A DNA stretch of 64,000 nucleotides from a virus, in IMG/VR virus record IMGVR_UViG_3300042563_002756, one strand, 5' to 3'. Shown piece by piece: positions 38,092-63,629 of the stretch. Positions within the stretch are counted from its first letter, which is position 1. The number at the start of each line of letters is the position of its first letter. Under the pieces are notes generated by a model. It did not search any database. It worked only from the letters and a program-made list of their open reading frames with translations, and was not told the DNA's origin. The translations under genes were made by a program, and so were the position numbers.

Positions 38092-38822
38092 AAAATAAAA
38101 TTGTTTTGATTGCTGGCGGAATGGGACAAATAGGATTAGAAGCAGCATCTAGATTATCAAATTTAGGTGCTATTGTTATTTGTTTAACTAGACAGGACCC
38201 TACTGAAGCAACTAATATTTTAAAAAATATTTCAATAAACTGCATAGCAGTTCAGTGCGATATTAAAAATACAACTATGATAAAAGATGTTGTACAGCAT
38301 ATTAGTAAAGAATATGGAAGAATAGATGTATTGATCAACAGTGCAGGTGTTACACATGATATTAAACTAGGAAATATTGAATCGATTACAGATGAAATAC
38401 TAGATAATATTATTGATACAAATCTAAAAGGATCTTTTAAATTAATAAGAGAATGTAAAGAACTTTTAGATAACTCAAGTAGTCCGCTAATTATTAATGT
38501 GTCATCGACATCAAGTTTACGGGCAAGTCGAAGTAACCCGATTTATGCTGCTTCGAAATCAGGTATTAACATACTGACCCAAACATTAGCATTACACCTT
38601 TCTCCGAGTATTAGGGTTGTTGGAATTGCGCCCGGCTACTTAGAAAAGGCTGTAGCAGGCGCTAATAAACCCAGTGAATATAATGACAAAATAGCACAGT
38701 CGTTACCCTTAAGACGAATTGGCACAGGAAAAGATGTAGTTGATGTGATAGAAAGTATTATTACCAAGATGACATGGATGACTGGAAATACTATTGTATT
38801 GGACGGAGGAATGACCATTTGA
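38085..38822 (+). CDS. short-chain dehydrogenase/reductase (SDR)
   Basis: IAGGMGQIG cofactor motif, NSAG, YAASK catalytic Tyr/Lys. Confidence 0.8.
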   Translation: MLKNKIVLIAGGMGQIGLEAASRLSNLGAIVICLTRQDPTEATNILKNISINCIAVQCDIKNTTMIKDVVQHISKEYGRIDVLINSAGVTHDIKLGNIESITDEILDNIIDTNLKGSFKLIRECKELLDNSSSPLIINVSSTSSLRASRSNPIYAASKSGINILTQTLALHLSPSIRVVGIAPGYLEKAVAGANKPSEYNDKIAQSLPLRRIGTGKDVVDVIESIITKMTWMTGNTIVLDGGMTI

Positions 38823-39691
38823 AAACTATAATAACATGTGCAATAACCGGAGCGTCGACTAGAAAAGATCAAACTCCTTATCTGCCAATTACTCCTGTAG
38901 AAATTGCCACCTCGGCGTTAGGGGCAGCATCAGCCGGTGCTGCTATTGTCCATTTACATGTAAGAGATCCTGAGACAGGCAATCCTAGCATGAGTTTTAA
39001 ATTATATGAAGAAGTTGTTTGTTTAATTAAAGAAAAAAATGACAAAGTTTTAATAAATTTAACAACGGGACCTGGTGCTCAATGGTTTCCTACTCCTGGT
39101 AATTTAGCGCAAGGAAGTCATCATAGCCTATTGCTCGGAGCCGCTGAGAGAGTGAATCATGTTGTAAAATTACGTCCCGATTTATGTAGTATAGACTTTA
39201 ATACAATGAATCAATCTAGCAACGGTGTTAGAATCAATCATAAACTAATTATAAAAGAAATGATTAAACTGATTCAAGATGCAGGCGTAAAACCTGAGCT
39301 AGAATTATTTGACAGTGGTGATTTAGTGTTGGCCAACGAATTTTATCAAGAAGGAATAATTGAAAAAAACCCATTTTGGCAATTTGCTATGGGGATCAAA
39401 TATGGTTGGGCTGCATCAACTAATACATTGATGTATGCACAACGAGAGTTGCCTTCGAGCGCAGTATGGAGTGCATTCGGAATAGGAAAAACTGAAATGC
39501 CTATATTGGCTCAAACTTCTATATTAGGTGGGCATGTAAGAGTGGGATTAGAAGATAATATCTATACAAAAAGAGGAAGATTAGCTGAATCAAATGCAGA
39601 GCTAGTTGAAATGGCTGTTAATATTATCGAGTTGCTAGGAGGAAATGTTGCAACTCCGGAAGACGCTAGATCTCTATTATCAATTATTTAA
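38819..39691 (+). CDS. BKACE/Kce-family beta-keto acid cleavage enzyme (DUF849); probable TTG start overlapping SDR stop (ORF open from 38774)
   Basis: AITGASTRKDQTPYLPITPVEIA...IVHLHVRD and GGHVRVGLEDNIY...LAESNAELV match Kce; TTGA overlap with GGAGGAA RBS. Confidence 0.8.
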   Translation: MKTIITCAITGASTRKDQTPYLPITPVEIATSALGAASAGAAIVHLHVRDPETGNPSMSFKLYEEVVCLIKEKNDKVLINLTTGPGAQWFPTPGNLAQGSHHSLLLGAAERVNHVVKLRPDLCSIDFNTMNQSSNGVRINHKLIIKEMIKLIQDAGVKPELELFDSGDLVLANEFYQEGIIEKNPFWQFAMGIKYGWAASTNTLMYAQRELPSSAVWSAFGIGKTEMPILAQTSILGGHVRVGLEDNIYTKRGRLAESNAELVEMAVNIIELLGGNVATPEDARSLLSII

Positions 39692-40595
39692 TCTTTCCTT
39701 CATCAATCAGATTGTTCTTTATGAGATATTCTAAAGTACTTTTATTAAATTCTTGAATAATTTGTGTATCGTTACCGTATTTGAGATAAGGCGTTATACC
39801 CAATCCTTTGATTCTTTTTTCAAAAGAAGCATCGAACTTATTTCTTATATCAAACAAAATTTTCTCTTTAATTTCAGCTGATAGACTTTTGCTAATTACA
39901 AGTCCCATTATATTTGATAGAGGAAATTTTTCTTTGAACTGTGTATCCCATAGAGGAACGTTTTCACTTATAGGGTTAGTGACTATTATTGCATTAAGCC
40001 TAGGATTAGTAAGGTGCTGTCTATGAACTGCATACTGGACCCACATACAGTTAATTTGATTACCTAGTAAGTCAAATAACGGTTTCCCTCCTCCAGCTGG
40101 ATATTGAACAATTATATGATTGTTTTTTGGAAGTTTATTTATAATCAATTGAGTAGTATAATGATCACCGGTTCCGACTCCAACTGAACCGAAGCTTAGA
40201 GATTTTTTATTATTCTGTAGATCTGTGAAATTCTTTATTCCTGTTTCGGCATTGCAAAACAATACCATAGGCATTACTCCGATCGATGCAATAATTTCTA
40301 GGTCTTCGGTTACAATTTTTTTAACATCGGGGTTCATTTTGTCAATTGACACAAAAGACATAATGGATGCAAATACCATAACGGCATTTTCTTTATGAAC
40401 GTGCCTAAGTGCAATCTGCGATGATCCGCCTGGCTTGTGTACCACAACGTAAGCAGGATCATTAAACGTTTCTTGAACTGACCTAGCAATTAAACTACCC
40501 GGACCGCCAGGTCCAAACGGAGCTACAATTTCTATTGTGGTTGCATAAAGGACTGAGTGAAACAGCATTATAGCAAGTAGTAATATTTTCTTCAT
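39684..40595 (-). CDS. TctC/Bug-family periplasmic solute-binding protein (signal peptide)
   Basis: IVAPFGPGGPGSLIARSV, VVVHKPGGSSQIA, FGSVGVGTGDHYTTQL, QYPAGGGKPLFDLLGNQINCMWVQ match TctC blocks. Confidence 0.75.
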   Translation of the reverse strand: MKKILLLAIMLFHSVLYATTIEIVAPFGPGGPGSLIARSVQETFNDPAYVVVHKPGGSSQIALRHVHKENAVMVFASIMSFVSIDKMNPDVKKIVTEDLEIIASIGVMPMVLFCNAETGIKNFTDLQNNKKSLSFGSVGVGTGDHYTTQLIINKLPKNNHIIVQYPAGGGKPLFDLLGNQINCMWVQYAVHRQHLTNPRLNAIIVTNPISENVPLWDTQFKEKFPLSNIMGLVISKSLSAEIKEKILFDIRNKFDASFEKRIKGLGITPYLKYGNDTQIIQEFNKSTLEYLIKNNLIDEGKIK

Positions 40596-40603
40596 AATCT
40601 TGT

Positions 40604-41857
40604 TTAGTCTAATAGCCAGTCCCCACCAAAGGGAAATGAATGTGTTGGTTTAAAATTAACAGCAGCATTATTCTTGTCGAAAGCTAAATATTCTCCATCT
40701 ATCCCATTTAGGTAACTCTTTACATAATAATTCCATTTGTCCTGTATTGGTTTAGTTTCATGATGGTCCCAGAATACCCAATCTTGCGGTTTTCCAACTT
40801 TTACCTGAGTTAGTATTTCGATATCTTTTTTTATTTGAAATCGATTAGTATTCCAAAATGGATACAGAACTTTTTTACATATTTCGTCTTTTAAGTACTG
40901 CGGAGTTTGATTTAGCAGCATCAGTGTTTTTTCTTTTGATAGATTATTAAACTTTGAAAGAGGATACAATAGCATTCTATCTTCTTTATTAGTTTTATAA
41001 TGGAGATAAACTTGATATGCCATTTCCACAGCTAGTAATGGGTAGTCTGGTGTTATATAAAAATACTCAGTACCGGTACCGCCAAAAGTCAAGTTGTGTT
41101 GCAGAGGCCAATCAACAAATCTCGAAACTACTTTATTAGGTTCTAATTCAGAAATATACAAGTTGGGTTTATCTGCTCCTTCGATAATGCCAACATTTAC
41201 ACCTTTGTCGAATAGAGTTTTTTCAAATTTAGAAAAATGCTGCATTCTATAAAAACTTATAGGGCTTAAATAGTGATTTTGTTTTTGAAACTGTGTATCA
41301 TCAATTCTTTTTTCTGTTGTAATATTTTCAAGCCAGTCGTCGACATAGATTTTTATGTCTGGATAATTTTTTGAAATCCAATCTAAGTCGGGTTTTATTA
41401 CATAGTCCCATTCACTTAATTCGTTCTTAGGACTGAAATTTAAATTGTTAGGGGTGTATAGATTTTTTGATTTAGCAGAAACTGGCCAATTAACATATAT
41501 TGCATCTAATTTTATATTGTTCTTTAAAAAAGTCATCAATACATTGTGACTGTCTGAACCGCCTGAATATTTTAAAATTAAATATTCATACTTGTCTCTT
41601 AATTGCATTGCACGATCTTTATATAAAACATTCAACGGAATTTGTCCACACAACGAATAGTTGAAGTTTTTCCATATGTCTGAATAATATCGAAATGCAA
41701 TACCTACATTAGTGTTTAATTTTTTTAATCGAGTAGCTTCGAGTAATGCCTCTACTTTGTTTAAGTAATCTTTGTAAAAATTATGATTACTTTTGTTATA
41801 TACTCTATAGCATCCAAAAGAGTTAAGTGATAGATCAGTAATTGTAGTATTAGTCAT
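40604..41857 (-). CDS. PP-loop ATP-pyrophosphatase-family protein, paralog 3 (417 aa)
   Basis: KYSGGSDSHNVL PP-loop. Confidence 0.65.
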   Translation of the reverse strand: MTNTTITDLSLNSFGCYRVYNKSNHNFYKDYLNKVEALLEATRLKKLNTNVGIAFRYYSDIWKNFNYSLCGQIPLNVLYKDRAMQLRDKYEYLILKYSGGSDSHNVLMTFLKNNIKLDAIYVNWPVSAKSKNLYTPNNLNFSPKNELSEWDYVIKPDLDWISKNYPDIKIYVDDWLENITTEKRIDDTQFQKQNHYLSPISFYRMQHFSKFEKTLFDKGVNVGIIEGADKPNLYISELEPNKVVSRFVDWPLQHNLTFGGTGTEYFYITPDYPLLAVEMAYQVYLHYKTNKEDRMLLYPLSKFNNLSKEKTLMLLNQTPQYLKDEICKKVLYPFWNTNRFQIKKDIEILTQVKVGKPQDWVFWDHHETKPIQDKWNYYVKSYLNGIDGEYLAFDKNNAAVNFKPTHSFPFGGDWLLD

Positions 41858-42700
41858 TTAGTTTAAATTAGAGCCTAACCAGTTGCCATAATGCACACAA
41901 TGATCCTCTAGTCTATTAGAAGATCGTGTGAGCGGATAGTGCGGTCCTTTCTGAGATTCAATCGCAGCAACATCTTCTCGAAAAACAGGTTCTATATAGT
42001 GTTCAAATTTTTCTCTTTGTCCTACATTGGTAGTTTTATCGAAATAATATTGTGTGATCCAATTAAAACCAAATTCACTTTCTGTATTGTGCGGGGTAGT
42101 ATAATTTAATGCTACACACCCCGGGCTCCATTCTATAAACGTATATGGATAAACAAATAACCACCAGCCTGTTGAACAGGTTTGCAAAATCCATCCGTCA
42201 CCGTCATACATTTCAATATCATTTAAATTTGTAATTTCTGCTAATTCAGGATGTACTACATCTTCACCTTGTCTAATATGTAGTAGGTCTGCCTGTATTT
42301 CCATCATCCAAAGCCAACTACCCTTTTCACTTGTTCCGTGTCTAGAATGGCTATATTCTAGATTAGTCTCTGTTGCAAGATCGTTGACCCATTGGTGATC
42401 TGGTTCTAAAAAGTTTTTAAATATTAATCCACTTTTTCCAGTTTGTGCAGATCCACATGCAATTTTTCGATCGTTGTTTATAGGATCTCCGTCCTTATTC
42501 CATTCAAATCCATGAAACTTGCATACTATATTTTCAACTATTGAACCCGGCTCTGCTAGCGGATACATACGATGGGGGCAATGGCGTCGAAAAAGATTTA
42601 TTTTATCTTGATTTTTATTAAGGATATAATCTGGTACAACAAAATTGCCAGCATCGAGGGCAGATGTATGGGCTAAAATTTTTGGTGGATTGTTGAACAT
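41858..42700 (-). CDS. Rieske [2Fe-2S] domain oxygenase-like protein (280 aa)
   Basis: CPHR ... CKFHG (CxH-x16-CxxH) Rieske signature; His-containing C-terminal domain. Confidence 0.65.
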   Translation of the reverse strand: MFNNPPKILAHTSALDAGNFVVPDYILNKNQDKINLFRRHCPHRMYPLAEPGSIVENIVCKFHGFEWNKDGDPINNDRKIACGSAQTGKSGLIFKNFLEPDHQWVNDLATETNLEYSHSRHGTSEKGSWLWMMEIQADLLHIRQGEDVVHPELAEITNLNDIEMYDGDGWILQTCSTGWWLFVYPYTFIEWSPGCVALNYTTPHNTESEFGFNWITQYYFDKTTNVGQREKFEHYIEPVFREDVAAIESQKGPHYPLTRSSNRLEDHCVHYGNWLGSNLN

Positions 42701-42723
42701 GTATTTTCTTTTTCTACAAATAT

Positions 42724-43641
42724 TTATTGTAATAACAAACGGTTTAATTCTTCTTCAGAATATTTAATTGTAGTATCGTCGATGTCTCTCATATATTTGT
42801 TATAAAAATCATTAATAAATTGAGGTCTATGAGCTACAGGATTATCTAATCCCTCGTATCCTACTAGTTTAGGTTTATATTCCATTGTAGGCCAAATGTA
42901 TTTGTGTATAGCAACTCTACTGCTGATATTACTAATCTTGCCCAAGTGCTCATCATTTAGTAGTTGCCTAACTAATGGAAGTTCTTTATAAGACATAATT
43001 ATTTCAGGAGTATATTCGTACCAATCACCTATAATAGTTCTCCCTATATTTTTAGCGTAGGTAGATACAGAATATCCATCCTCGTGTAATTGAAATAGCC
43101 AACGAGACTTTTTACTGTAATCATTTTCTAATTCACGACGCCAGTAAGGTTCGCCGTCGCAGAAGATAGGTATGTTGTCTAAGTAGTCAATAAATTTAAG
43201 TCTAGGCAGTCTCCCTGCCATTGGTATCAGTGTACTATTAAACAATTCCAATGCTTCTTCTTTAAAGAATTTTTCTACGTTAAAATCGACGATATTGTAA
43301 GGTATGTTTAGTTCGTTGCATAATTTTACAGCATTGTTTACGTCGCGAATATTGTAGTTATTTTCTAATCTAAAGATAAAAGTATTATGTTTAATACCAG
43401 CACTCTTAAATGTTCTGACAACTATTTCACTGTCTGTACCTCCACTAAGGCATACGTCAAACGGTTCTTTATAAGAATCTCGCATGATACGTGCATTATT
43501 AATGAGTGCGTCTTTATAAGAAGTTAACGGAGTACTGATCTTGTTGTTAAAATTTATAGATATAATACTATGTTTATCTTTTTTAACACCGTATTCAATA
43601 CCGTCAAAATTATAACTCATCCAGTTATTAAATCTTTGCAT
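42724..43641 (-). CDS. PP-loop ATP-pyrophosphatase-family protein, paralog 4 (305 aa)
   Basis: CLSGGTDSEIVV PP-loop. Confidence 0.65.
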   Translation of the reverse strand: MQRFNNWMSYNFDGIEYGVKKDKHSIISINFNNKISTPLTSYKDALINNARIMRDSYKEPFDVCLSGGTDSEIVVRTFKSAGIKHNTFIFRLENNYNIRDVNNAVKLCNELNIPYNIVDFNVEKFFKEEALELFNSTLIPMAGRLPRLKFIDYLDNIPIFCDGEPYWRRELENDYSKKSRWLFQLHEDGYSVSTYAKNIGRTIIGDWYEYTPEIIMSYKELPLVRQLLNDEHLGKISNISSRVAIHKYIWPTMEYKPKLVGYEGLDNPVAHRPQFINDFYNKYMRDIDDTTIKYSEEELNRLLLQ

Positions 43642-43649
43642 TGAATATT

Positions 43650-45128
43650 CTAATCTGATTTGTGTTGTAAGTTAAAAGTCTTTGATAGTTCTAACATATC
43701 ATTTACGTATATTTCGCATTCTTTCTTAATCAACGAGGGAATATTATATTTAGATATTATTTCTTTTCTGGATAAATTCAATAATTCCTTATCTGGAATT
43801 CCGAATCGTCTTAGGTAATTATAAGTAAATCCACCGAATTTAAATTTTGAAAACTTGTTAGATTTTTCTGTTATATTGTGAGCAATATCAAAGCACTGTG
43901 AGTAACTTAACCCTGTATTTTTATTATACCATCCTTCATCTGTAATTTCATAACCATACTTATCATGATTAATATCAAATTCAGAGTGGAAGTTTTTATT
44001 AGTTTTACTAAGAGGAGAAATACCTAAGGGATTTACATACCAGCTATCTAAATAATTTTTGTCTGAGAATAAAAATTCTTCAAGTTCGGTAAAAGTATCA
44101 AGCGTATCATGTGGTAATCCTAATATAAATCCTGAATTTAATATTACGTCTTTGAATTCATTTTGTTTTAATTCTTTTATAAATTCTAATTGATCGTAGG
44201 GATTTAAACCTTTACCAATAGATTTAGCAGATTGGTGATTAATACTTTCAATACCAAACATTGCCGATGTGAGCCCGGACTCTTTTAAGTACGGGATAGA
44301 CTCTGGAAATCGCATTAGTAAGTCAATCCTCAAATAACTAGAAAAATGAATTTTAAATTTAAGTTTAGAAAATACGTTATCATGTAAATATTTTAACTTG
44401 TCTAAACTATCATTATAGGTATCATCACTAAAAGTATAATAAGTTATTCCAAAATTTTCATAATTATAATTTAACTCATCTAATAAAACATTTCCGTGTT
44501 TTATCCACTCACCTTTTGTTTTTCCGTTTAATGGGAATGCACAAAACTTACATTTAAAAATGCAACCTCTGCTTATCTCAATTGGCAATGCATCTAAATT
44601 ACTAATCAGATCATTTTTAGTGTACGTTATTTGACTTGATGAAAAATCTTTAAATTCACTACCTTGAATTAATGTAGTACGAAAAGAAATATTAGATGAT
44701 TTGTTTGTCAAACACCATTCAGTGAATTCTATAATTTCTTTGTCACTATAGCTCTTGAATATCTTTACTCCATATTGTTCTAATGGAAAATATCTAGACC
44801 CACCTGATATTATTTTAACTTTGGGATTTAAATTCTTGATAAATTGTATAAAGTTAACAAACAGTTCATCGTTTGTAGTAGATTTAAACGTTAATCCAAG
44901 AAGTTTATCAAAAAATGTAGTACTAAATCCTACCCACAATGTGCTTGATGATATTGAATTTTTTAAGACTTCTTTTAGCTGTTCTAGTTTATTCACATAT
45001 TCAAATGCACTTAGATCAATGCACACAGTAGAATAATTATTCTTTCTCAGTTCGGATGATATTCTAAATACGCCGCCGTGCTTTTGTAGTGGCATTGGGG
45101 TACTACCGTATAATAAAATACAATTCAT
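43650..45128 (-). CDS. radical SAM enzyme with N-terminal B12-binding-like domain, paralog 1
   Basis: CxxxCxxC (RGCIFKCKFCAF); N-terminal Rossmann-like region; 492 aa. Confidence 0.7.
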   Translation of the reverse strand: MNCILLYGSTPMPLQKHGGVFRISSELRKNNYSTVCIDLSAFEYVNKLEQLKEVLKNSISSSTLWVGFSTTFFDKLLGLTFKSTTNDELFVNFIQFIKNLNPKVKIISGGSRYFPLEQYGVKIFKSYSDKEIIEFTEWCLTNKSSNISFRTTLIQGSEFKDFSSSQITYTKNDLISNLDALPIEISRGCIFKCKFCAFPLNGKTKGEWIKHGNVLLDELNYNYENFGITYYTFSDDTYNDSLDKLKYLHDNVFSKLKFKIHFSSYLRIDLLMRFPESIPYLKESGLTSAMFGIESINHQSAKSIGKGLNPYDQLEFIKELKQNEFKDVILNSGFILGLPHDTLDTFTELEEFLFSDKNYLDSWYVNPLGISPLSKTNKNFHSEFDINHDKYGYEITDEGWYNKNTGLSYSQCFDIAHNITEKSNKFSKFKFGGFTYNYLRRFGIPDKELLNLSRKEIISKYNIPSLIKKECEIYVNDMLELSKTFNLQHKSD

Positions 45129-45898
45129 GTTTTGATTACCTTAATAATTAGTCCAGCAATATCAAGTTCCCACCATTTCTTTTTGAACATATAGTCTTTA
45201 GGGTATCGATGATGATTATTGTGCCACGATTCCCCCCAACTAGGAATAGCCCATATCCAGTTGTTTGTGCTTTGATCGTTTATATTATAACTACGATATC
45301 CACCTAACCAATCAGGTTTATGACCTACGTAATTAACTACATTACTCATAATTCCAGTAATCAGCGACGGTGCCCAAAGTAAAAATATCATTAAATAAAA
45401 TCCACCAATCATAAACAATATCATGCTATACACAGCAATAATTGCAAAATAATAACGGTGTAAAAACTGTTGAAATTTATCCGTTACTATATTTCTCATA
45501 CGCCATTTAGTATTACTATCAATTTCATTTACGTAATCAAGTGTAAAGATTTTCAAGCCTTTATATAATGGACTGTGAGGATCACTTGGTTTGTCACTTT
45601 TTAAGTGATGATTAATATGAATAGCGACCCATGCTAATGGACTTCCTGTTCCTGCAAAACAGCCCATCACTGATAAAATTTTAGTTAATAAAGGATATGT
45701 AGTATAGCTATTATGAGTAAGGCTTCTATGGTATGTGACGACAATACCCAAACAACCGTATAAAAAATATCCTAACAATATAAGCAATACAGCGTTAGTC
45801 GTTAGACCATACCAAGTTATTCCAGAAATGGTACCTAGTAATGATAAAATCATGAATAGTTGGGAACCGCGTGTGCTAGATGATAGATATGTTGTCAT
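45125..45898 (-). CDS. acyl-CoA/acyl-lipid Delta9 fatty-acid desaturase-family membrane protein, paralog 1
   Basis: His boxes HRSLTH, HINHH...DPH, HNNHH with SCD-like spacing; multiple TM segments. Confidence 0.75.
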   Translation of the reverse strand: MTTYLSSSTRGSQLFMILSLLGTISGITWYGLTTNAVLLILLGYFLYGCLGIVVTYHRSLTHNSYTTYPLLTKILSVMGCFAGTGSPLAWVAIHINHHLKSDKPSDPHSPLYKGLKIFTLDYVNEIDSNTKWRMRNIVTDKFQQFLHRYYFAIIAVYSMILFMIGGFYLMIFLLWAPSLITGIMSNVVNYVGHKPDWLGGYRSYNINDQSTNNWIWAIPSWGESWHNNHHRYPKDYMFKKKWWELDIAGLIIKVIKT

Positions 45899-45928
45899 AA
45901 AGTTATGTAACTTATTATTTTAAGTTAT

Positions 45929-46522
45929 TTAATCTTGTTGTAGCGTACTCCAGGCATAATTGTAATATTTTAAATAGCTACGGTTAATCAAATGTTCGAA
46001 GTCATTGTTTGGTTCTCCGTATACCGCTAATAGACCCTTGCTACAATTAGGATCATATTTGGAAGAATGTTTTACTGGGCCGTCTAGATAATAAAAACTG
46101 TTAGTATCATTTGGCATCGTTAAGGTATAGGAACTAGTTTCATTTGTAAAATTCCATACAGGTTCTTGATAAGTGTTCCAGAGGAATGTTCGTATACTAG
46201 GGGTATTTCTTGTGTTATCAGAATGGGGGGATATCGTTTCTAAATTTTCTATCACTCTGATAAGTCCAATTTTAAATTTAACTGAATCTTGAATTTGTTT
46301 GCATAAGTCTATCACTACTGGATTCTGTTCAGCATATGGTGCTTGATAACTGGTAGGATGGCCACGAATTTTGTATAAGTCTAAGCCTCGCCAGTTTGAC
46401 GAAACGGTGTTGTGGTTCCTAATAGCTTTATGCATAACATCAGCAGTCTTCCAGGTACTCCACCATTCATTCCAATCATTGGGTACAATTTTAGGTATAT
46501 CTAACGGACAAACTAATATCAT
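45929..46522 (-). CDS. hypothetical protein (197 aa)
   Basis: ORF between the two desaturases. Confidence 0.4.
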   Translation of the reverse strand: MILVCPLDIPKIVPNDWNEWWSTWKTADVMHKAIRNHNTVSSNWRGLDLYKIRGHPTSYQAPYAEQNPVVIDLCKQIQDSVKFKIGLIRVIENLETISPHSDNTRNTPSIRTFLWNTYQEPVWNFTNETSSYTLTMPNDTNSFYYLDGPVKHSSKYDPNCSKGLLAVYGEPNNDFEHLINRSYLKYYNYAWSTLQQD

Positions 46523-46639
46523 TAATTATTAAACTTACTTTTTATCGATTTATAAGATTCTGTAGTTGACCCGAATGATAGCAAATATCTGACTTTGCGC
46601 CGACCTTTATTTGATACCCTATGAAATTGTTTAGTGCTA

Positions 46640-47446
46640 TCATGATTTTTTTCTAATAAAAATAATAAAATTTCCTAATGAGTCAACTTCCCACCATTTT
46701 ATTTTAGTGGTAAAATTTCCAGGATTTTTATGATGATTATTATGCCAGGCATCCCCGAGTATAAAGGGCCATAACCAGATGTTATTAGTACTAGTATCTC
46801 GAGTTTCGAAGTTTCTATGTCCGTGCATATGAGCAAAATAGTTAAAACAGTTTTGACTTAGCTGTACTAACATAACAGGTAATACCCATGTAAAATAAAT
46901 TAAATCGATATTGATAAAACTTAAAAAAACCAACCATGTAAATATTATAGCAAAATACCATTTATTAATAAAGAGATGTTCTTTGGTCATTAGCTCTTTT
47001 ACTAAAAATACTTTCATCTTACCACTATGAGTTTCGATGTGTTTAAATCCAAATAATTTAAATCCTAAGTTATGAGGACTATGCGGGTCCTCATGTTGAT
47101 CTGAGTAGGCATGATGTAATCGATGCACATATACCCAACCTAAGGGGCTTCCTCGACCAGTAAGTATTGCAATCAACGTACAGATCCATTTTAGCAGGTT
47201 ACTGTTAAATTCAAAAGATTTATGACTATAGTACCTATGCAACGTAAGACTTACACCTATAATACTATAGAGATAAAAACTTATAGTTGTTATTAGAATA
47301 TTTTGAAAAGTAAAATCAAAATAAAACAATCCAATAATTGCACATAGGCTTGTGGCTAGTTGAACTTTGGTAATTGTGGTTGCACTTGCTGAAAACATAT
47401 TGTATTTATGAACTAAATATTTTAAGGACACAAATATTCCTTGCAC
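46640..47446 (-). CDS. acyl-CoA/acyl-lipid Delta9 fatty-acid desaturase-family membrane protein, paralog 2
   Basis: HRYYSH, HRLHHAYSDQHEDPH, HNNHH His boxes. Confidence 0.75.
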   Translation of the reverse strand: MQGIFVSLKYLVHKYNMFSASATTITKVQLATSLCAIIGLFYFDFTFQNILITTISFYLYSIIGVSLTLHRYYSHKSFEFNSNLLKWICTLIAILTGRGSPLGWVYVHRLHHAYSDQHEDPHSPHNLGFKLFGFKHIETHSGKMKVFLVKELMTKEHLFINKWYFAIIFTWLVFLSFINIDLIYFTWVLPVMLVQLSQNCFNYFAHMHGHRNFETRDTSTNNIWLWPFILGDAWHNNHHKNPGNFTTKIKWWEVDSLGNFIIFIRKKS

Positions 47447-47488
47447 TTGTAGGAAGCATAAGTATAGTTATCTACTGAATTTATTCCT

Positions 47489-48094
47489 ATGAAAATTGTA
47501 CGTTACAGAGAATTGATCGACAATACTGAATTTTTTACTTTTTTAAAAACAGAGTCACTTGAAATAGATCAGCTAGCAAGCATAAATCTTTGGACAGAAG
47601 ATCAGCAATCTAACAGTCATACGCTATCTTATATTTTAACAAACACTAACCGGTTTGATGGAGTTAACGGTGACTTCTATATCCTTTATGATGGTAATAA
47701 TATAGTGGCATGTAGCGGCGTATACATAAGTGAATTTAGTAAAGATATTGTAATTGCAGGCGTGCGTACTTGGGTGAATAAAAATTACCGCCATTTAACA
47801 TTGAATAGAGACTATCTTTTAGCAGAACAAAAAAAATGGGCAATAGATAGAAATGCAAAAATAATAGCATTATCGTTTAATGAGTATAACAAAAACATTA
47901 TTCAAATTTTCAAGCGTAACCGGCTAGGAGAAAACTCAGGAAGAATTAACAGTCGGTTGCCCAAACATATTTTTTACAATGGTTTACAGGAAATTAAATT
48001 TCCGATAATAATTCAATATACTCCTCAGTGGGTAATCTACGAAAAATTAGATTCAAATTTTACATTTGACTGGACTACTATTAAATGGAAGTAA
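47489..48094 (+). CDS. hypothetical protein, possible GNAT-like fold (201 aa)
   Basis: weak acyl-CoA N-acyltransferase-like core; speculative. Confidence 0.3.
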   Translation: MKIVRYRELIDNTEFFTFLKTESLEIDQLASINLWTEDQQSNSHTLSYILTNTNRFDGVNGDFYILYDGNNIVACSGVYISEFSKDIVIAGVRTWVNKNYRHLTLNRDYLLAEQKKWAIDRNAKIIALSFNEYNKNIIQIFKRNRLGENSGRINSRLPKHIFYNGLQEIKFPIIIQYTPQWVIYEKLDSNFTFDWTTIKWK

Positions 48095-49554
48095 TATTAT
48101 TCACTGATGTTGCAGATACTATAGGTTACGGGAAATATGCCGGGACTTACAAAATAGCAACTGAAATTAGAAACTCAGGATACTCTTGTCAGGTAATAGA
48201 CTTATTCAGTTTTTATTCATATGAGCAATTAACAAATATCGTTGATAAGTTTGTTACTAACGAGACATTACTAATTGGATTTAGCTGCACACTAATGGAA
48301 AAACGTGAAGACAATAGTGTTAAAAATTTTGGAAGAGACACCGAAGAATTTGTATCTATTGTAAAGTACTCTAAATCTAAAAATTCAAAAGTCAAAGTTT
48401 GTCTCGGTGGTGCACGAATGACCTTGAATTCATATTGGTCGGGAGTTGATTATGTAGTAATAAACAAAGGTGATGTAGCTATAATAAAGTTGCTAGAGCA
48501 TCTATCTACAGGCGCTGATTTAAAAACTGTAAAGACTACTCCTTGCTATGTTATAGATGGCAGTGATTATTTTTATACTCAAGAGCAGTTTGCTACTAGT
48601 AGCATTATATATCAGCCACAGGATATTATTTTTACAGGGGAATCGTTACCTATAGAAATAGCTCGAGGTTGTATATTTCAATGTGCATTTTGCCACTTCG
48701 ATCTAATAGGAAAAAAAGTAGGCGATTGGCAAAAAGATGAACAAGTTTTGCAAGAAGAGTTGATAAGAAACTATGAACTCTTTGGAACAACTCACTATAT
48801 GTTTGCTGACGAATTGATCAATGAAAGTCTTCCTAAGATGGAAATGATCCATAGAGTGTTTACCAACTTACCTTTTAAAATTTCATACACTAGTTATGCA
48901 AGATTAGATTTGATTTGGAAGTTTCCCGAGATGCGAGAAATGCTATTAGAAAGTGGGGCAGCTAGTTTAGCATTCGGAATAGAAACTATGAATGATCGCG
49001 CTGGAAAGAAAATAGGAAAAGGTCTAGGAGAAAAGCGTATTAAAGAGACGCTAGCCTATTGTGGAGAGTTATGGAAGGGTAAGATTATTACCAGTAGCAA
49101 TTTTATTGTAGGATTACCTGGTGAAGATGAAAATAGTATATACAGGACGTTAGATTATTTGTTAAGCAATGAATGTTCTTTAGATGTATTTGGATTTCTA
49201 CCATTGTACATCAGATCAGATCATGACGGAAGAAGTACAAGCAAAATTGATCAAGACCCTAAGAAGTATGGATACTCGATTAAAATCAATCAGCCCTGGG
49301 AAAGTGATCAGATGAATTTTACAGAAGCATCTGCCCTTGTGCGTAAGATATATAATGATCCTAGACTACAACAACGTAGTAAGTTCAGTGCCGCTACCTG
49401 GATAGGTCGTATTATGAATCTAGGATATACGATTGAAGAAATATTTGAAATGATCAGTGATAAAGAAACTTCTTTTGATCAGCTCAATACACTATTAGTC
49501 AGTCGAAGTTTGCTATTGAAATCTCAATACTACAACAAACTAATGTCTCTTTAA
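48085..49554 (+). CDS. radical SAM enzyme with N-terminal B12-binding-like domain, paralog 2
   Basis: RGCIFQCAFCHF CxxxCxxC; collinear with 43650..45128. Confidence 0.7.
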   Translation: MEVILFTDVADTIGYGKYAGTYKIATEIRNSGYSCQVIDLFSFYSYEQLTNIVDKFVTNETLLIGFSCTLMEKREDNSVKNFGRDTEEFVSIVKYSKSKNSKVKVCLGGARMTLNSYWSGVDYVVINKGDVAIIKLLEHLSTGADLKTVKTTPCYVIDGSDYFYTQEQFATSSIIYQPQDIIFTGESLPIEIARGCIFQCAFCHFDLIGKKVGDWQKDEQVLQEELIRNYELFGTTHYMFADELINESLPKMEMIHRVFTNLPFKISYTSYARLDLIWKFPEMREMLLESGAASLAFGIETMNDRAGKKIGKGLGEKRIKETLAYCGELWKGKIITSSNFIVGLPGEDENSIYRTLDYLLSNECSLDVFGFLPLYIRSDHDGRSTSKIDQDPKKYGYSIKINQPWESDQMNFTEASALVRKIYNDPRLQQRSKFSAATWIGRIMNLGYTIEEIFEMISDKETSFDQLNTLLVSRSLLLKSQYYNKLMSL

Positions 49555-50057
49555 ATCTGTTCTACTGTTACTCCGGACTTTTCAAGGAATTTGACACCTG
49601 AATCATCCCTATAGTTTTCACCATAATATACACGACTAATGCCTGACTGATAAATGAGCTTGGCACAGTTGAGACAGGGCATGTGAGTAACAAATAAGTC
49701 AGCCCCAACACCACTGTTGTTAGACTTCGCCAATTTTGCAATAGCATTTGATTCTGCATGTAATACCTCAGGTTTAGTTTTTAATCCGTATCGAACATTT
49801 CGTTGAGCACCTTCGTGCCATCCTTCGTATGGATACTTGGCATCAAACTCTTCAGGGTCGAGCCAACCGCCTGCACCCGAATCCCATACTTGATCTTCGC
49901 AGTTGTTATCCCAACCTGCGGGCATGCCATTGTATCCGTAACTAATAACACTGTCATCTTTGACGATCACAGCACCTACTTGTAATCTACGAGCGTGGCT
50001 AAGTTCAGCAGCTCTTAAAGCCCAATCCATATACATGTCTATGTATTTTTCTTTCAT
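49551..50057 (-). CDS. cd: dCMP deaminase
   Basis: HAESNAI and PCLNCAK zinc-binding motifs of the cytidine/deoxycytidylate deaminase family; GC content returns to phage-like. Confidence 0.85.
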   Translation of the reverse strand: MKEKYIDMYMDWALRAAELSHARRLQVGAVIVKDDSVISYGYNGMPAGWDNNCEDQVWDSGAGGWLDPEEFDAKYPYEGWHEGAQRNVRYGLKTKPEVLHAESNAIAKLAKSNNSGVGADLFVTHMPCLNCAKLIYQSGISRVYYGENYRDDSGVKFLEKSGVTVEQI

Positions 50058-50809
50058 TGATAATCTCTGCCGTCTCTAGAGTGGTACTTTTTATCGGGAT
50101 CATAGTGGGCAAATTGATCATAATTTGGTTCGTTTGGTAACACTCTTTTACCTACGAACCACTCGCCTATGTGATTAATTAGTTTTCTTCCATAATAATT
50201 TCTAATATTCGCAGACACCATGCCGTACTGTTCGTGTAGTACTTTACCTACAAGCCCTTCATTTAAATTAAAATCGTAGAATTTTCTATAGTCCACCTTA
50301 ACCCTATCTAATGAATATAAACTTGCCATGGGACTAAAAATCAAGCTATTTTTTGTATAACGAAAATTCTTATAGATATGATCTGATCTGTCAGCAATCG
50401 GATCCGTTTCGTGACCGTACCATGCTTGTCTTGCTAACTGAACCTGTCCCAATTCTTGATCTTTTTGCAATAGCTCTATAAGGTCGGTGACTAGTACAGG
50501 TTCTAGTATTTCTACGTCATCTTCTTGGTGCCATATGTAGTCATAATCTCTTTCCTTCATTAGGTCCCAGAATTGACTCCATGTTACACTCAACCCTAGA
50601 TTTTCTGGATGCAAAATAATTTCATTATAGCCGTACAACTTAACCAGCTCTGTGATCATCAAATCGTTTCGAGTTTTAGGATAATCATCGATGAAAATTT
50701 TATGTACTTCGCATCCGTAATAATTTATATTACGCTGTGCTCTTAGTGTACGAGTCAAGTACTCTAGTCTGTTAGTTGAAAATATTACCTGACAAATTTT
50801 ATAGGTCAT
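50054..50809 (-). CDS. putative GT-A glycosyltransferase
   Basis: FIDDYP and HQEDDV DxD-like motifs. Confidence 0.45.
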   Translation of the reverse strand: MTYKICQVIFSTNRLEYLTRTLRAQRNINYYGCEVHKIFIDDYPKTRNDLMITELVKLYGYNEIILHPENLGLSVTWSQFWDLMKERDYDYIWHQEDDVEILEPVLVTDLIELLQKDQELGQVQLARQAWYGHETDPIADRSDHIYKNFRYTKNSLIFSPMASLYSLDRVKVDYRKFYDFNLNEGLVGKVLHEQYGMVSANIRNYYGRKLINHIGEWFVGKRVLPNEPNYDQFAHYDPDKKYHSRDGRDYQ

Positions 50810-51357
50810 TAGATTCTCTCAGTATTAAAGAAGAAAGTTTGGAAAAGTCTGCCAGTTTCGTTGCTGTATCCAAAATAATCTAAACTTGCGTGGTATAGAT
50901 CACCTCGATAGATTATCAGTCTGTTATACTTGTTTCCTACTCTATCAAATTGATCCCATTTGGTATAATCATAACCTTCGTGATCTTTGTTAGATCTTCT
51001 AAATTCTCCAGTTTCTTTGTGGCGGTAAAATGCAGTTCCACCTGTATGTGGAGCATCCGGAGTTAGGTAACAAACACCTGCCCACATATTATGATGGTCG
51101 GCATGTATCCATGTTCTGTCTTGAGCTGTGGCTAATTGAAAGGCTCCGGTGTAACCTTGATCTTCAAACCAGTAAGTAACCGGTCCTGCAAATGCCATCC
51201 AGTATTCGATACAGGATTTAACATCGTCCGGTAGATAAGGTTTAGTTCTCGATCCGGGATAATTTCCTTTTACCGAGAAGTCTTGAGACAATGCATAATT
51301 TCTAACAATGTCTGGGTTCTCATAAAAGTTATCGATAACTAATAATTCTAAATTCAT
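50809..51357 (-). CDS. putative Fe(II)/2OG oxygenase-like protein
   Basis: HADHH (HxD) and distal His; weak. Confidence 0.35.
   Translation of the reverse strand: MNLELLVIDNFYENPDIVRNYALSQDFSVKGNYPGSRTKPYLPDDVKSCIEYWMAFAGPVTYWFEDQGYTGAFQLATAQDRTWIHADHHNMWAGVCYLTPDAPHTGGTAFYRHKETGEFRRSNKDHEGYDYTKWDQFDRVGNKYNRLIIYRGDLYHASLDYFGYSNETGRLFQTFFFNTERI

Positions 51358-63554: not shown

Positions 63555-63629
<75 letters not shown>

Follow-up and report, generated by a model that had tools for sequence, protein, structure and literature searches.

A gene block in a large uncultured phage that most likely remodels lipid acyl chains during infection

B12-dependent radical SAM enzymes are an established route for methylating, cyclising or desaturating inert lipid chains, and for ladderanes a logic in which a desaturase acts before a radical SAM enzyme has already been proposed. 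In aquatic T4-like phages, radical SAM cassettes and desaturases were noted earlier in hypervariable islands. Here we analyzed a window of 64,000 nucleotides from an uncultured phage (IMG/VR record IMGVR_UViG_3300042563_002756). Judging from its genes, a block at 39684..49554, occupying both strands, most likely remodels lipid acyl chains chemically during infection. An earlier note on this DNA had pointed to two B12-type radical SAM genes interleaved with two desaturase genes; all four lie in this block and are part of a wider unit, not a free-standing quartet.

Phage identity and gene layout

The phage is a divergent T4-like/jumbo myovirus and not recognisably a cyanophage. A cyanophage origin is not supported: among phages in culture, those closest to it, at ~28–30% identity, are PA5oct-like Pseudomonas jumbo phages, Caulobacter Cr30 and phages of Sinorhizobium, and no nucleotide match to any deposited phage was found. 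The four open reading frames were recovered exactly as previously placed: rSAM-A at 43650..45128 (minus strand, 492 aa), Des1 at 45125..45898 (minus strand, 257 aa), Des2 at 46640..47446 (minus strand, 268 aa) and rSAM-B at 48085..49554 (plus strand, 489 aa). For Des2, the 268 aa follow from an upstream GTG at 47446, while gene callers on identical contigs use the ATG at 47398, giving 252 aa (46640..47398).

On the plus strand, a GNAT gene (U201) leads into rSAM-B with a 10-nt overlap. Divergently, the minus strand carries Des2, the HxD..H protein U197, Des1, rSAM-A, the PP-loop gene PPa, a Rieske gene, a second PP-loop gene (PPb) and TctC, separated by 117, 30, −4, 8, 23, 0 and 8 nt, the negative value being the ATGA overlap of the Des1 stop with the rSAM-A start. 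Because compact phage genomes often have overlapping start and stop codons, such overlaps are weak evidence for shared function. The 90-bp divergent region between Des2 and the GNAT gene (47399..47488) is presumed from sequence and layout to be a bidirectional control region; a promoter-consensus scan gave no enrichment over shuffles, and therefore no promoter is claimed there. The setting counts against a joint pathway as well: in a hypervariable accessory island such as the one that holds the block, genes can lie together for positional reasons. FolE, a PTPS/QueD-like protein and a dCMP deaminase are also encoded in the window.

Enzymes of the block

Both desaturases exceeded the Pfam FA_desaturase threshold (E 2.3e-19 for Des1 and 6.2e-16 for Des2) and are paralogs with 32% identity (E 2e-43). 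The three His boxes of the Delta9 type reported previously were confirmed in each, as HRSLTH, HINHH..DPH and HNNHH in Des1 and HRYYSH, HRLHH..DPH and HNNHH in Des2. The eight box histidines and a ninth (H193 of Des1) were 100% conserved among 79 unique phage paralogs, as were D102, D106 and N212 of Des1, and all nine His ligands are present in both proteins. The comparisons with known desaturases and of topology that the earlier note had called for agreed with this assignment: Des1 aligned end to end with mouse SCD1 (PDB 4ymk, E 8e-12), and hydropathy gave an SCD1-like topology with two hydrophobic hairpins and every His box on one membrane face. These sequence features support the classification of Des1 and Des2 as SCD/DesC-type (Delta9-family) di-iron enzymes. 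Such desaturases are rare in phages, occurring in 3 of 50,697 deposited records, one of them bacterial-looking.

The two radical SAM proteins both scored above the Pfam Radical_SAM threshold (E 6.6e-15 for rSAM-A and 2.4e-13 for rSAM-B). They proved to be true paralogs, with 37% identity (E 2e-69) across 394 aa that take in the N-terminal domain, the similarity beginning at rSAM-A residue 16. The CxxxCxxC cluster corresponds to RGCIFKCKFCAF in rSAM-A (C189/C193/C196) and RGCIFQCAFCHF in rSAM-B (C196/C200/C203), and all three cysteines were invariant in 51 family members. The family is virus-specific, its cellular relatives being at most 28% identical, and a tblastn search of rSAM-B against the 50,697 deposited phages gave no match. 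The enzymes of the block look functional, given the invariant desaturase ligands and radical SAM Cys triad and the dN/dS values of 0.05 for Des1 (against L005), 0.09 for Des2 and 0.07 for the GNAT, which indicate purifying selection; for both radical SAM genes dS was saturated and dN was ~0.23.

The proposed B12-binding domain was recovered in part. The Pfam B12-binding model reached 21.7 bits in rSAM-B, below the curated cut-off of 32.1, and did not match rSAM-A. [quoted passage not shown] Its best full-length structure matches included the cobalamin enzymes TsrM, CysS, MgmA/QCMT, TokK and OxsB, the N-terminal domain taken alone matched corrinoid-binding domains, and the top PDB sequence match was the B12-dependent methylase QCMT/MgmA. 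However, RimO/MiaB and the cobalamin-free AprD4 scored with the same fold, which by itself cannot tell cobalamin enzymes from these proteins. For the candidate assignment as Class B methyltransferases, no cut-off of the curated B12-radical SAM families in NCBIfam was approached (78 bits versus 600 for PhpK and 67 versus 360 for TIGR04072), and the weak matches included BchE and RiPP C-methyltransferase models. In the mechanism proposed below, both proteins would probably hold cobalamin in the N-terminal domain; methyl transfer is likewise a candidate activity.

Among the accessory genes, U201 (47489..48094, plus strand, 201 aa) has the fold of a GNAT acyl-CoA N-acyltransferase (AlphaFold pLDDT 91): all 50 top Foldseek matches in the PDB were GNATs, with PaiA, SpeG and BjaI, an acyl-HSL synthase, among them. 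Its family is virus-restricted and has 216 metagenomic homologs, a few of which match Pfam PF00583. U197 (45929..46522, minus strand, 197 aa) matched neither Pfam nor PDB sequences; the invariants of its family alignment A4, the triad H100-x-D102...H152 plus R111 and K162, suggest by motif a cupin/2OG-type Fe(II) oxygenase. PPa (42724..43641, minus strand, 305 aa) is an SGGTDS PP-loop ATP pyrophosphatase whose family profile A3 matched NAD synthetase 3p52 (E 1.8e-5), then TtuA, QueC, GMP synthase and TilS, all matches being confined to the N-terminal PP-loop domain. PPb (40604..41857, minus strand, 417 aa) is an SGGSDS PP-loop ATP-pyrophosphatase-like protein whose S98-G-G-x-D-S does not vary across family alignment A5; hhalign relates it to PPa as a distant paralog (probability 93%, E 3e-7). 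Between them lies a Rieske [2Fe-2S] domain protein (41858..42700, minus strand, 280 aa; Pfam Rieske E 1.2e-8), a putative oxygenase or electron-transfer component. The minus-strand chain closes with a TctC/Bug-family periplasmic solute-binding protein with a signal-like N-terminal segment (39684..40595, minus strand, 303 aa; Pfam TctC E 1.8e-8, above cut-off).

Conservation of the neighbourhood across viral loci

Dozens of contigs from uncultured phages carry the block, and the interleaving of radical SAM and desaturase genes described earlier is real and non-random, with the same juxtapositions in many independent contigs. Across 34 desaturase loci, which hold up to eight desaturase paralogs each, a Des1-type and a Des2-type gene were retained together in 31. 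PPa was likewise found in 31, U201 in 28, PPb in 23 and U197 in 22, in many of which it sits between both desaturase genes; the Rieske gene lay between PPa and PPb in 11. PPb was followed directly by TctC in at least 10 related loci. Radical SAM genes were present in ~60% of the 34 loci, with 13 having none within 10 kb, and a desaturase gene was the immediate neighbour of 15 of the 24 radical SAM genes in module loci. Position was fixed by ortholog type. A-type genes always followed a desaturase gene and directly preceded PPa, with an overlapping or 8-nt junction, an order kept in the window (W) and in L020, L023-25, L029, L031 and L033; B-type genes were divergent from a desaturase gene or fused to the end of a GNAT gene. 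Contigs reached independently through rSAM-B relatives had the same layout.

We also sampled 80 viral loci starting from radical SAM genes and scored desaturases within 6 kb. A desaturase was absent from 59 of the 80, but nearby in 17 of the 21 loci whose radical SAM protein was at least 44% identical to rSAM-A. These included a minimal trio of lipase-like, radical SAM and desaturase genes, set in the backbone of an unrelated small phage (L083-88), and, in L108/L114, an SDR gene, a radical SAM gene and two desaturase genes. In the radical SAM tree, desaturase-linked members fell in at least four lineages, apart from a clade with DNA-related context. Distant relatives (32–35% identity) adjoined an amino-acid:DNA transferase and a kinase, or sat between DNA ligase and DNA polymerase genes; given these hypermodification or replication contexts, the desaturase link is frequent, not obligatory. 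These results support a recurrent conserved neighbourhood that is obligatory in neither direction. Related loci add genes for ACP (E 2e-17 in L005), ketoacyl synthase, NMO/FabK-like, FA_hydroxylase, SDR, PhyH, alpha/beta hydrolase and lipase-like proteins; the ACP, ketoacyl synthase, FabK-like, FA-hydroxylase and lipase-like genes favour an acyl-chain substrate. The lipid tailoring suggested at the outset is partly supported by these genes and by the recurrent pairing.

Possible functions of the block

The explanation we favour, tentatively and with a little less than even confidence, is that the four genes stand at the centre of a modular block, specific to viruses, for tailoring acyl chains. 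Expressed in infection, it would alter host membrane or envelope lipids or yield a lipid-derived product. Des2 and Des1, as integral-membrane, O2-dependent di-iron enzymes, would abstract hydrogen from a saturated acyl chain and create double bonds, acting on an acyl-lipid, acyl-CoA or acyl-ACP with electrons from host donors. The radical SAM enzymes would work on that chain too, at the double bond just formed or close to it. With a 5'-deoxyadenosyl radical generated by their [4Fe-4S] cluster, and probably with cobalamin, they would carry out a second, chemically difficult modification. This could be C-methylation, the commonest outcome for the enzyme class, or else cyclisation, C–C coupling or O2-independent desaturation. 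Transferring acyl groups, activating or amidating carboxylates, hydroxylation and uptake would fall to the GNAT, PP-loop, Rieske, HxD..H and TctC proteins. We infer the acyl substrate, the order of steps, cobalamin use, methylation and any benefit to the phage; what the sequences show directly are the enzyme families, complete sets of catalytic residues, membrane topology, fold, purifying selection and recurrent linkage. Against the acyl-tailoring explanation, radical SAM clusters are O2-labile while desaturases require O2, neither a ferredoxin nor a cytochrome b5 encoded by the phage turned up, and we know of no established role for PP-loop enzymes in lipid chemistry.

It is also conceivable, though we think it unlikely, that the genes are independent cargo whose adjacency reflects a shared hypervariable island without a shared pathway: the desaturases would be membrane-fluidity genes like cyanophage vFADs, and the radical SAM enzymes would modify nucleotides, DNA bases, tRNA or virion proteins, for instance, together with the PP-loop, GNAT and 2OG-type proteins. 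The distant relatives between DNA ligase and polymerase genes, or directly 3' of an amino-acid:DNA transferase gene (PF18724, E 1.5e-23) that is accompanied by a P-loop kinase-like gene, point this way, as do a radical SAM clade whose loci link it to PP-loop genes and lack a nearby desaturase (L094-98, L112, L115), the loci where either partner is missing, and the FolE, QueD-like and deaminase genes. Acetyltransferases and radical SAM enzymes are known sculptors of hypermodified thymidine, and radical SAM cassettes of pelagimyophage islands were described with no lipid link stated. However, no ADDT, 5-hmdU-kinase or related homolog occurs in the window or the 33 module loci, the DNA-context clade is separate from both rSAM-A and rSAM-B, the characterised hypermodification enzyme M6 gp53 is SPL-like and not B12-type, tblastn found no counterpart of rSAM-B in the deposited phages, and PPa and PPb are QueC-like weakly and over the PP-loop alone. 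The recurrence of desaturase adjacency in separate lineages and unrelated backbones, the lipase-like trio included, also argues against this reading.

Two further readings accept an acyl substrate, and both appear improbable to us. The di-iron and B12-type enzymes might perform the same acyl modification in oxic and anoxic water, respectively, so that a stratified-lake phage could remodel host lipids in both. Such O2-dependent and O2-independent pairs recur (AcsF/BchE, HemF/HemN), BchE is among the weak matches, and each gene type can occur without the other, a pattern that suits alternatives better than consecutive steps that depend on each other. Ted is moreover a reported B12-radical SAM enzyme that desaturates inert lipid tails anaerobically, but neither rSAM-A nor rSAM-B showed specific similarity to Ted or any lipid radical SAM enzyme, and the translationally coupled order of desaturase, radical SAM and PPa genes suggests co-expression rather than alternative use. 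The block might instead make a small secreted or signalling molecule or lipidated peptide (an N-acyl amide, N-acyl amino acid or lipopeptide) rather than change bulk membrane lipids, with ACP as the carrier on which the acyl chain is built or loaded. Desaturation and radical methylation would follow, the GNAT would transfer the chain, the PP-loop enzymes would amidate it, and TctC would handle a carboxylate precursor. Amidation would suit PP-loop enzymes, which typically activate carboxylates or carbonyls by adenylation for this purpose. The acyl-homoserine-lactone synthase match would also suit this route, although the fold does not reveal GNAT substrate specificity. The RiPP methyltransferase matches, the ATP-grasp, ACP, KAS, cupin and PhyH genes of block variants, and paralog expansions resembling diversifying secondary-metabolite clusters (up to eight desaturases and 2–5 PP-loop genes) would be compatible as well, but ACP and KAS are confined to a minority of loci that does not include the window, and genes for NRPS, PKS or export did not turn up. 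Nor is there a conserved precursor-peptide ORF, the sole candidate (46542..46643, 33 aa) having one weak match in 33 loci.

Of the combination described in the earlier note, both ingredients, desaturases and radical SAM cassettes, had been noted before in aquatic T4-like phages. The module adds a variant to the lipid AMGs already known in phages.

Two desaturases and two radical SAM paralogs

The four genes singled out in the earlier note were found by ORF listing at exactly the coordinates it had given. They comprise two radical SAM (rSAM) paralogs, rSAM-A (43650..45128, minus strand, 492 aa) and rSAM-B (48085..49554, plus strand, 489 aa), and two SCD/DesC-type desaturase-like genes, Des1 (45125..45898, minus strand, 257 aa) and Des2 (46640..47446, minus strand, 268 aa). 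The start of Des2 is most likely the ATG at 47398 (252 aa), which gene callers picked on identical contigs. Both desaturases passed the Pfam FA_desaturase model, with 70.6 bits (E 2.3e-19) for Des1 and 59.4 bits (E 6.2e-16) for Des2 against a cut-off of 29.7, and scored 91.6 and 75.1 bits with the NCBIfam DesA-family model, whose cut-off is 400. The two proteins were 32% identical to each other, and Des1 aligned over its full length with mouse stearoyl-CoA desaturase 1 (SCD1, 4ymk; E 8e-12). When 79 unique phage paralogs were aligned with SCD1, the eight His of the claimed boxes were 100% conserved, as was the residue matching the ninth His of SCD1 (H193 in Des1); each of H57, H62, H94, H97, H98, H226, H229, H230 and H193 of Des1 aligned to a His of SCD1. 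Invariance extended to one Asn and to two Asp within the 'D...DPH' stretch.

Membrane topology, which the earlier note had wanted checked, was read from hydropathy only. Des1 has hydrophobic hairpins at about residues 14-56 and 148-188, with His boxes just past the first hairpin (57-62), between the hairpins (94-98) and past the second (226-230), and Des2 shows the same pattern, which fits the four-helix, two-hairpin topology of SCD/DesC-type enzymes. Because of these positions relative to the two hairpins, all three boxes are predicted to lie on one membrane face, as in SCD1. The dN/dS values against orthologs were 0.05 for Des1 and 0.09 for Des2, which counts against the pseudogenes considered earlier as a possible refutation; the neighbouring GNAT gene gave 0.07, and for the rSAM genes dN was about 0.23 with dS saturated. 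Searches with ferredoxin and cytochrome b5 seeds (phmmer) found no phage-encoded electron donor near the module, so the desaturases would need host electron donors.

Both rSAM proteins passed Pfam Radical_SAM (PF04055), with 56.1 bits (E 6.6e-15) for rSAM-A and 51.0 bits (E 2.4e-13) for rSAM-B against a gathering threshold of 29.5. The expected CxxxCxxC clusters were located at C189/C193/C196 and C196/C200/C203, respectively, and this Cys triad was invariant in 51 sequences of the family. The proposed paralogy also held, at 37% identity over 394 residues (E 2e-69); since the alignment begins at residue 16, the N-terminal domains are homologous as well. As to the B12-binding region claimed for these domains, the Pfam B12-binding model gave no match for rSAM-A and 21.7 bits against a threshold of 32.1 for rSAM-B. 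The structural model of rSAM-B (pLDDT 93) has a Rossmann-like domain at its N-terminus, and its rSAM core, with the partial TIM-barrel fold, matches many rSAM structures. The top Foldseek ranks for this model were the cobalamin enzymes TsrM, CysS, OxsB and TokK, and the best PDB sequence match was 9ccb, the B12-dependent glutamine C-methyltransferase QCMT/MgmA. A B12-type architecture is thus supported by the model. The same fold can occur without cobalamin, as in AprD4, and a cobalamin-dependent methyltransferase would be a plausible reading of it.

None of the curated B12-rSAM functional families in NCBIfam (PhpK, TIGR04072, HpnR, HpnJ, BchE, RiPP C-MT) came near its cut-off. The best score was 78 bits for PhpK (cut-off 600), and all others were lower. 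The second-best match of rSAM-B was TIGR04072 ('lipid biosynthesis B12-binding/radical SAM protein'; residues 20-372), whose 67 bits are far under the cut-off of 360, so rSAM-B is not a member. We rejected a MiaB/RimO methylthiotransferase identity since the N-terminal domain lacks the three-Cys cluster: only C35 is nearly invariant there, the other nearly invariant Cys, C326 and C364, lie in the C-terminal half, and the NCBIfam MiaB/RimO scores were 15-24 bits against cut-offs of 251-357.

The rSAM family is plentiful in metagenomes, with 569 matches, none of them named. When genome contigs of 185,579 species genomes were scanned with the rSAM alignment, the closest cellular proteins reached only 20-28% identity, and the family is therefore essentially virus-specific. 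These nearest cellular relatives were generic B12-rSAM genes in anaerobe MAGs, often in tandem; arrays of 3-5 such genes were seen in the comparison loci L037 (Planctomycetia MAG CAZWON010000011.1), L039 and L040. We rejected the idea that the module has a cellular origin or counterpart, as in this one scan the MAG relatives had no desaturase, GNAT or PP-loop gene nearby.

A conserved block in a phage accessory island

We defined the surrounding block by ORF clustering across 33 related viral loci and the window, 34 loci in all. The block proved plastic yet conserved and, at 39684..49554 in the window, wider than the four genes. On the minus strand, the order is Des2, U197 (45929..46522), Des1, rSAM-A, PPa (42724..43641), a Rieske gene (41858..42700), PPb (40604..41857) and a TctC-type solute-binding protein gene (39684..40595), separated by 117, 30, -4, 8, 23, 0 and 8 nt. 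The plus strand carries U201 (47489..48094) followed by rSAM-B with a 10-nt overlap, and 90 bp lie between the divergent strands. A Des2-type gene followed by a Des1-type gene formed two stable orthogroups, both retained in 31 of the 34 loci, and rSAM genes were found in 21. Some phages carry divergent extra desaturase copies, up to eight per locus: within 20-kb stretches, we counted eight in L021, seven in L017, six in L016 and five each in L027 and L032. The full set of His ligands is present in all of the extra copies, although their identity to Des1 and Des2 is only 26-40%.

For U201, the structural model (pLDDT 91) has a GNAT fold, and the best 50 Foldseek matches were all GNATs, acyl-homoserine-lactone synthase among them; the sequence-level GNAT signal was weak (Pfam E 0.038; PDB profile E ~0.1). 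The SGGxDS PP-loop motif is invariant in both the PPa and PPb families. Matches of the PPa profile to NAD synthetase, TtuA, QueC and GMP synthase were confined to the PP-loop domain, and PPb is a distant paralog of PPa by hhalign, although PPb alone had no match to a PP-loop enzyme in the PDB search. A true QueC or QueE identity was discarded for PPa/PPb and the rSAMs, the matches being weak and at the PP-loop level and the rSAM architecture being wrong for QueE. U197 (197 aa) has an invariant HxD...H triad and no relatives in Pfam or PDB sequence searches; from the motif, it may be an oxygenase. Candidate roles would be carboxylate activation or amidation for the PP-loop proteins, acyl transfer for the GNAT, hydroxylation or electron supply for the Rieske protein and carboxylate binding for the TctC-type protein.

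A RiPP precursor was considered and dropped, as the sole intergenic small ORF is not conserved. This 33-aa ORF (46542-46643, minus strand, in the 117-nt gap between Des2 and U197) had one weak match among the 33 loci (L006, 55% over 29 aa) and is probably not a gene. A scan for promoters and terminators found no motifs enriched relative to shuffled sequences. Genes for AhpD-like (CMD), AhpC/peroxiredoxin and DOPA-dioxygenase-like proteins regularly flank the module (L066 11657-13125; flanks of L004-L010, ORF clusters c7 and c14), and this may be relevant to peroxide protection of Fe-S and di-iron enzymes.

We then asked how closely the rSAM and desaturase genes are associated. Among the module loci, a desaturase gene was the immediate neighbour of 15 of 24 rSAM genes. 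A-type rSAMs always stood in the order desaturase, rSAM, PPa with overlapping junctions, whereas B-type rSAMs either diverged from a desaturase gene at 37-69 nt or overlapped the end of the GNAT gene. Contigs reached through relatives of rSAM-B (58-66% identity) had the same layout with PhyH and ATP-grasp genes added. A sample drawn from the rSAM side (305 loci among viral contigs, 80 retained) contained a desaturase in 17 of 21 loci whose rSAM was at least 44% identical to rSAM-A, in contrast to 5 of 59 loci with more distant rSAMs. L083-88 carry, on a different phage backbone, a minimal trio of alpha/beta-hydrolase, rSAM and desaturase beside a DNA polymerase gene. In L108/L114, an SDR, an rSAM and two desaturases precede a QueC-like gene. 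When 84 unique rSAMs were placed on a neighbour-joining tree and marked by genomic context, the desaturase-adjacent ones fell into at least four lineages, and rSAMs from DNA contexts had a clade of their own.

Such desaturases are extremely rare in phages, occurring in 3 of 50,697 deposited records, one of them bacterial-looking, and the recurrence is therefore far beyond chance. Several lines of comparative evidence thus suggest that the rSAM-desaturase link is more than co-location. The link is obligatory in neither direction. In L094-L098, L112 and L115, one or two rSAM genes are flanked by up to five PP-loop paralogs of the PPa and PPb types with no adjacent desaturase, so an rSAM/PP-loop partnership also occurs without desaturases. 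The record 'Acinetobacter phage MD-2021a' (L069, CAKLQH020000002.1) was disregarded as a desaturase-bearing phage for its bacterial-chromosome-like context; its trpB, trpC, btuB, baeS/baeR and aidB genes are more chromosome-like than phage-like, and it is probably a mislabelled entry in the phage collection.

The window belongs to a T4-like or jumbo myovirus with rIIA, rIIB, long tail fibre, baseplate and dCMP deaminase genes, and related IMG/VR contigs reach 335-349 kb. Two window segments had no nucleotide match among the 50,697 deposited phages (megablast). The nearest relatives of rIIA and of a conserved 406-aa protein were PA5oct-like Pseudomonas jumbo phages, Caulobacter Cr30 and Sinorhizobium phages (28-30% identity), and Des1 tblastn returned no cyanophage at E <= 1e-3 among deposited phages; nothing speaks for the label 'cyanophage'. 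The module sits in a low-GC accessory island (~32% GC vs 41-43% in the flanks) that also carries host-like transport and metabolic genes and glycosyltransferases.

Several further genes of the window were noted. At 36757-39691, 32729-33709 and 31399-32310, all on the plus strand, lies a group of metabolic and uptake genes. An AMP-binding ligase, an FabG-like SDR and a BKACE protein (beta-keto-acid cleavage enzyme; E 1e-89) are encoded co-directionally, and genes for a second TctC-like protein and for a TRAP DctP solute-binding protein (E 8e-56) are close by. The AMP-ligase, SDR, BKACE and DctP genes at 32.7-39.7 kb were rejected as pathway members because they are not conserved with the module; together with the TctC-like gene, they are host-like cargo and may be a hint that the host is a proteobacterium. 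The window also encodes FolE (GTP cyclohydrolase I, 28669-29367, minus strand; E 6e-40) and a PTPS/QueD-like protein (17190-17696, minus strand; E 8e-15), whose types of reaction are the first in pterin or 7-deazaguanine synthesis. Among the genes of the window, no clear candidate for QueC, QueE or DpdA was seen. Other unusual cargo, all on the minus strand, comprises a Bax1-inhibitor/YccA-like membrane protein (24505-25191; E 2e-53), ClpP (17797-18381; E 8e-76), an SPFH/Band-7 protein (53877-54674) and a Peptidase_S11 D-Ala-D-Ala carboxypeptidase (25906-26739; E 2.5e-34). A minus-strand sugar or envelope-modifying set (50054-53138, 29417-30250 and 15489-16903) includes two glycosyltransferases, a DUF6445 protein, a UDP-glucose/GDP-mannose dehydrogenase-like protein, a nucleotide-sugar epimerase and a cytidylyltransferase; the genes at 50-53 kb are conserved with L021 and L026 only. 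A single tRNA-Gly (GCC) gene lies at 63556-63629 (minus strand).

Candidate chemistry and its alternatives

In some phages, the module itself contains ACP homologs (E 2e-17 and 1e-4, the former directly beside a desaturase gene), a ketoacyl synthase (Pfam E 2e-20) and an NMO/FabK-like reductase (E 2e-15). These ACP, ketoacyl synthase and FabK-like sites are in L005 (16834-17112), L023-25 (3954-4178), L021 and L027 (c121), and L011, L020, L026 and L029 (c30); all three components are absent from the module of this window. Other block variants carry a short FA_hydroxylase, SDRs, a PhyH-type oxygenase or an alpha/beta hydrolase with a lipase-type nucleophile elbow. Because the desaturases are of the SCD type and the block variants of lipid type, the gene content points to acyl chains as the probable substrate. 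In the most novel scheme considered, the paired desaturases would create double bonds, the virus-specific, putatively cobalamin-dependent rSAMs would then methylate, cyclise or cross-link at these double bonds, and the GNAT and PP-loop enzymes would attach or amidate the product. That a large uncultured phage clade encodes its own multi-enzyme lipid pathway without cellular counterpart, yielding branched or unsaturated lipids or acyl amides foreign to the host, is a tentative proposal that we consider rather unlikely as a whole.

The two enzyme types could instead be independent cargo, the rSAMs serving nucleic-acid modification and the desaturases being unrelated to them. Thymidine-hypermodification cassettes combine an aGPT-Pplase/ADDT, a 5-HMUDK kinase and tailoring enzymes, among which rSAMs and acetyltransferases occur (Lee et al. 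2018/2021, PMC8989533), and we found rSAM relatives at 32-35% identity directly downstream of a PF18724 amino-acid:DNA transferase (ADDT; E 1.5e-23) with a kinase-like gene nearby, and other family members between DNA ligase and polymerase genes. However, neither the window nor L001-L036 gave any match in tblastn with ADDT and kinase representatives, which sets the module apart from such cassettes; the DNA-context rSAMs form a separate clade, rSAM-B tblastn found nothing among deposited phages, and the characterised hypermodification rSAM, M6 gp53, is SPL-like and has no B12-type domain (PMC8989533). A DNA-hypermodification role for the rSAMs of the window is weakened by the missing ADDT and kinase and the separate clade, and we retain it as a rival. 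The ADDT-adjacent rSAMs themselves (L118, L125, L126, L128, L130, L132, L133, L139 and L141, at about 6000-7500 in each) have the B12-type length of those in the window, and they are followed by a P-loop kinase-like ORF and then by a 231-aa protein with a HELIH motif. These loci resemble a so far undescribed kind of thymidine-hypermodification cassette in which the rSAM is of the B12 type, and the family members they contain point to undescribed DNA hypermodification chemistry.

Two further readings keep the enzymes within lipid or acyl chemistry. The rSAMs might be oxygen-independent counterparts of the oxygen-dependent desaturases, each used in its own oxygen regime, and a recent report describes a B12-rSAM that desaturates lipids anaerobically; translational coupling in the block argues for co-expression rather than alternative use. 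The product might also be a small acyl amide or lipopeptide, which fits the GNAT, PP-loop, ATP-grasp and ACP components, but the block has no conserved precursor peptide, export or assembly genes.

Part of this cargo is already established, namely single DesC-like desaturases in cyanomyophages and rSAM cassettes, a desaturase, fabF and Asp/Asn hydroxylases in pelagimyophage islands. The searchable literature contained no conserved module in which two desaturase orthogroups stand together with a GNAT, PP-loop enzymes and virus-specific clades of B12-type rSAMs, in line with the belief of the earlier note that the pairing was unreported, nor did it contain an expansion to eight desaturase paralogs or a viral B12-rSAM implicated in lipid chemistry. 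An amoC-phage preprint considered as a description of the same clade was not relevant. To our knowledge, phage lipid auxiliary genes are otherwise only single fluidity-tuning desaturases, and all the radical SAM lipid chemistry we know of is cellular: hopanoid and tetraether methylation, ring formation and anaerobic desaturation. A specialist would find both the linkage and the virus-specific enzyme family surprising, and they are directly testable. The block suggests that a widespread group of large aquatic phages assembled and diversified a toolkit of their own around desaturases. If the lipid-pathway reading is true, it would be the first viral B12-radical-SAM lipid chemistry and a possible source of 'orphan' methyl-branched lipid biomarkers in lakes. 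If the enzymes act jointly on acyl chains, infected cells would contain virus-specific lipids, with consequences for membrane physiology in infection and for superinfection exclusion, and the interpretation of methyl-branched or unusual unsaturated lipids from lake sediments would be affected too; the desaturase/B12-rSAM pair would also offer a compact co-evolving system in which to study radical functionalisation beside double bonds.

Comparison with known systems

The lipid-active B12-rSAM enzymes, which include the hopanoid methylases HpnP/HpnR, GDGT/GMGT methylases, the GDGT ring synthase and the tetraether desaturase Ted, methylate, cyclise and even desaturate, and are the known route to unactivated lipid carbons (PMC13459092; bioRxiv 10.1101/2025.10.20.683597). 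Their domain architecture, with a B12-type Rossmann domain ahead of the rSAM core, is also the one predicted for the rSAMs of the window, and the corresponding NCBIfam matches are weak and far under their cut-offs (HpnR 18.6 vs 650 bits, HpnJ 46 vs 578). Unlike the viral enzymes, the known modifiers are all cellular and act on isoprenoid or hopanoid lipids, and the B12-rSAM lipid review mentions no phage example. In the ladderane proposals, a desaturase yields an unsaturated acyl-ACP that an rSAM rearranges; that pathway is itself unproven, and ladderane desaturases are not known to be of the SCD type. For the cyclopropane and branched fatty acids of bacteria, made with Cfa and, in the case of 10-methyl stearate, with BfaA/BfaB, an acyl double bond becomes the site of SAM-dependent C-methylation. 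This desaturate-then-methylate logic is the one first proposed for the module, but the methylases involved are classical Rossmann SAM methyltransferases with polar chemistry rather than radical SAM/B12 enzymes, and no homologs of them were found in the block.

The accessory island resembles in its layout the hypervariable region that Zaragoza-Solas et al. (2020, PMC7029224) described as the 'host recognition cluster' in pelagimyophages and cyanomyophages. Both are islands of aquatic T4-like phages, and the sugar or envelope-modifying set of the window resembles the pelagimyophage clusters. Pelagimyophage islands contain rSAM cassettes, an FA_desaturase-domain protein, Asp/Arg hydroxylases, an N-acetyltransferase, peroxiredoxin, dioxygenases and glycosyltransferases, and freshwater members contain fabF and a stearoyl-CoA desaturase; the authors proposed that the clusters serve to alter the host surface (PMC7029224). 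In the cultured SAR11 phage Mosig (Pelagibacter phage, MT647606, L068), we found an analogous island at 52741-67340 beside the tail fibres. It encodes three MoaA-like rSAMs and a 216-aa protein with an FA_desaturase domain, together with two Asp/Arg hydroxylases, a TauD-type dioxygenase, a peroxiredoxin and an N-acetyltransferase, as well as a methylase, a carbamoyltransferase and aminotransferases. The rSAMs of Mosig are short proteins with a MoaA-like annotation, whereas those of the window have about 490 aa and a B12-type domain, and the Mosig desaturase is only 24% identical to Des1. Neither a conserved order of desaturase, rSAM and PP-loop genes nor desaturase orthogroups in pairs nor virus-specific clades of B12-type rSAMs were described for the host recognition clusters.

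The cyanophage vFAD-I/II are DesC-like Delta9 lipid desaturases that desaturated C16 chains at Delta9 in yeast (Roitman et al. 2018, PMC5776448). Des1 and Des2 share with them a phage origin and the three His boxes and probably belong to the same Delta9 family of membrane desaturases, and the two sets would follow the same auxiliary-gene logic, by which host membrane lipids are adjusted during infection. The vFADs are single genes of cyanomyoviruses, close to picocyanobacterial DesC and with no rSAM partner described, whereas Des1 and Des2 appear to be an ancient pair in a non-cyanophage backbone, linked to rSAM, GNAT and PP-loop genes.
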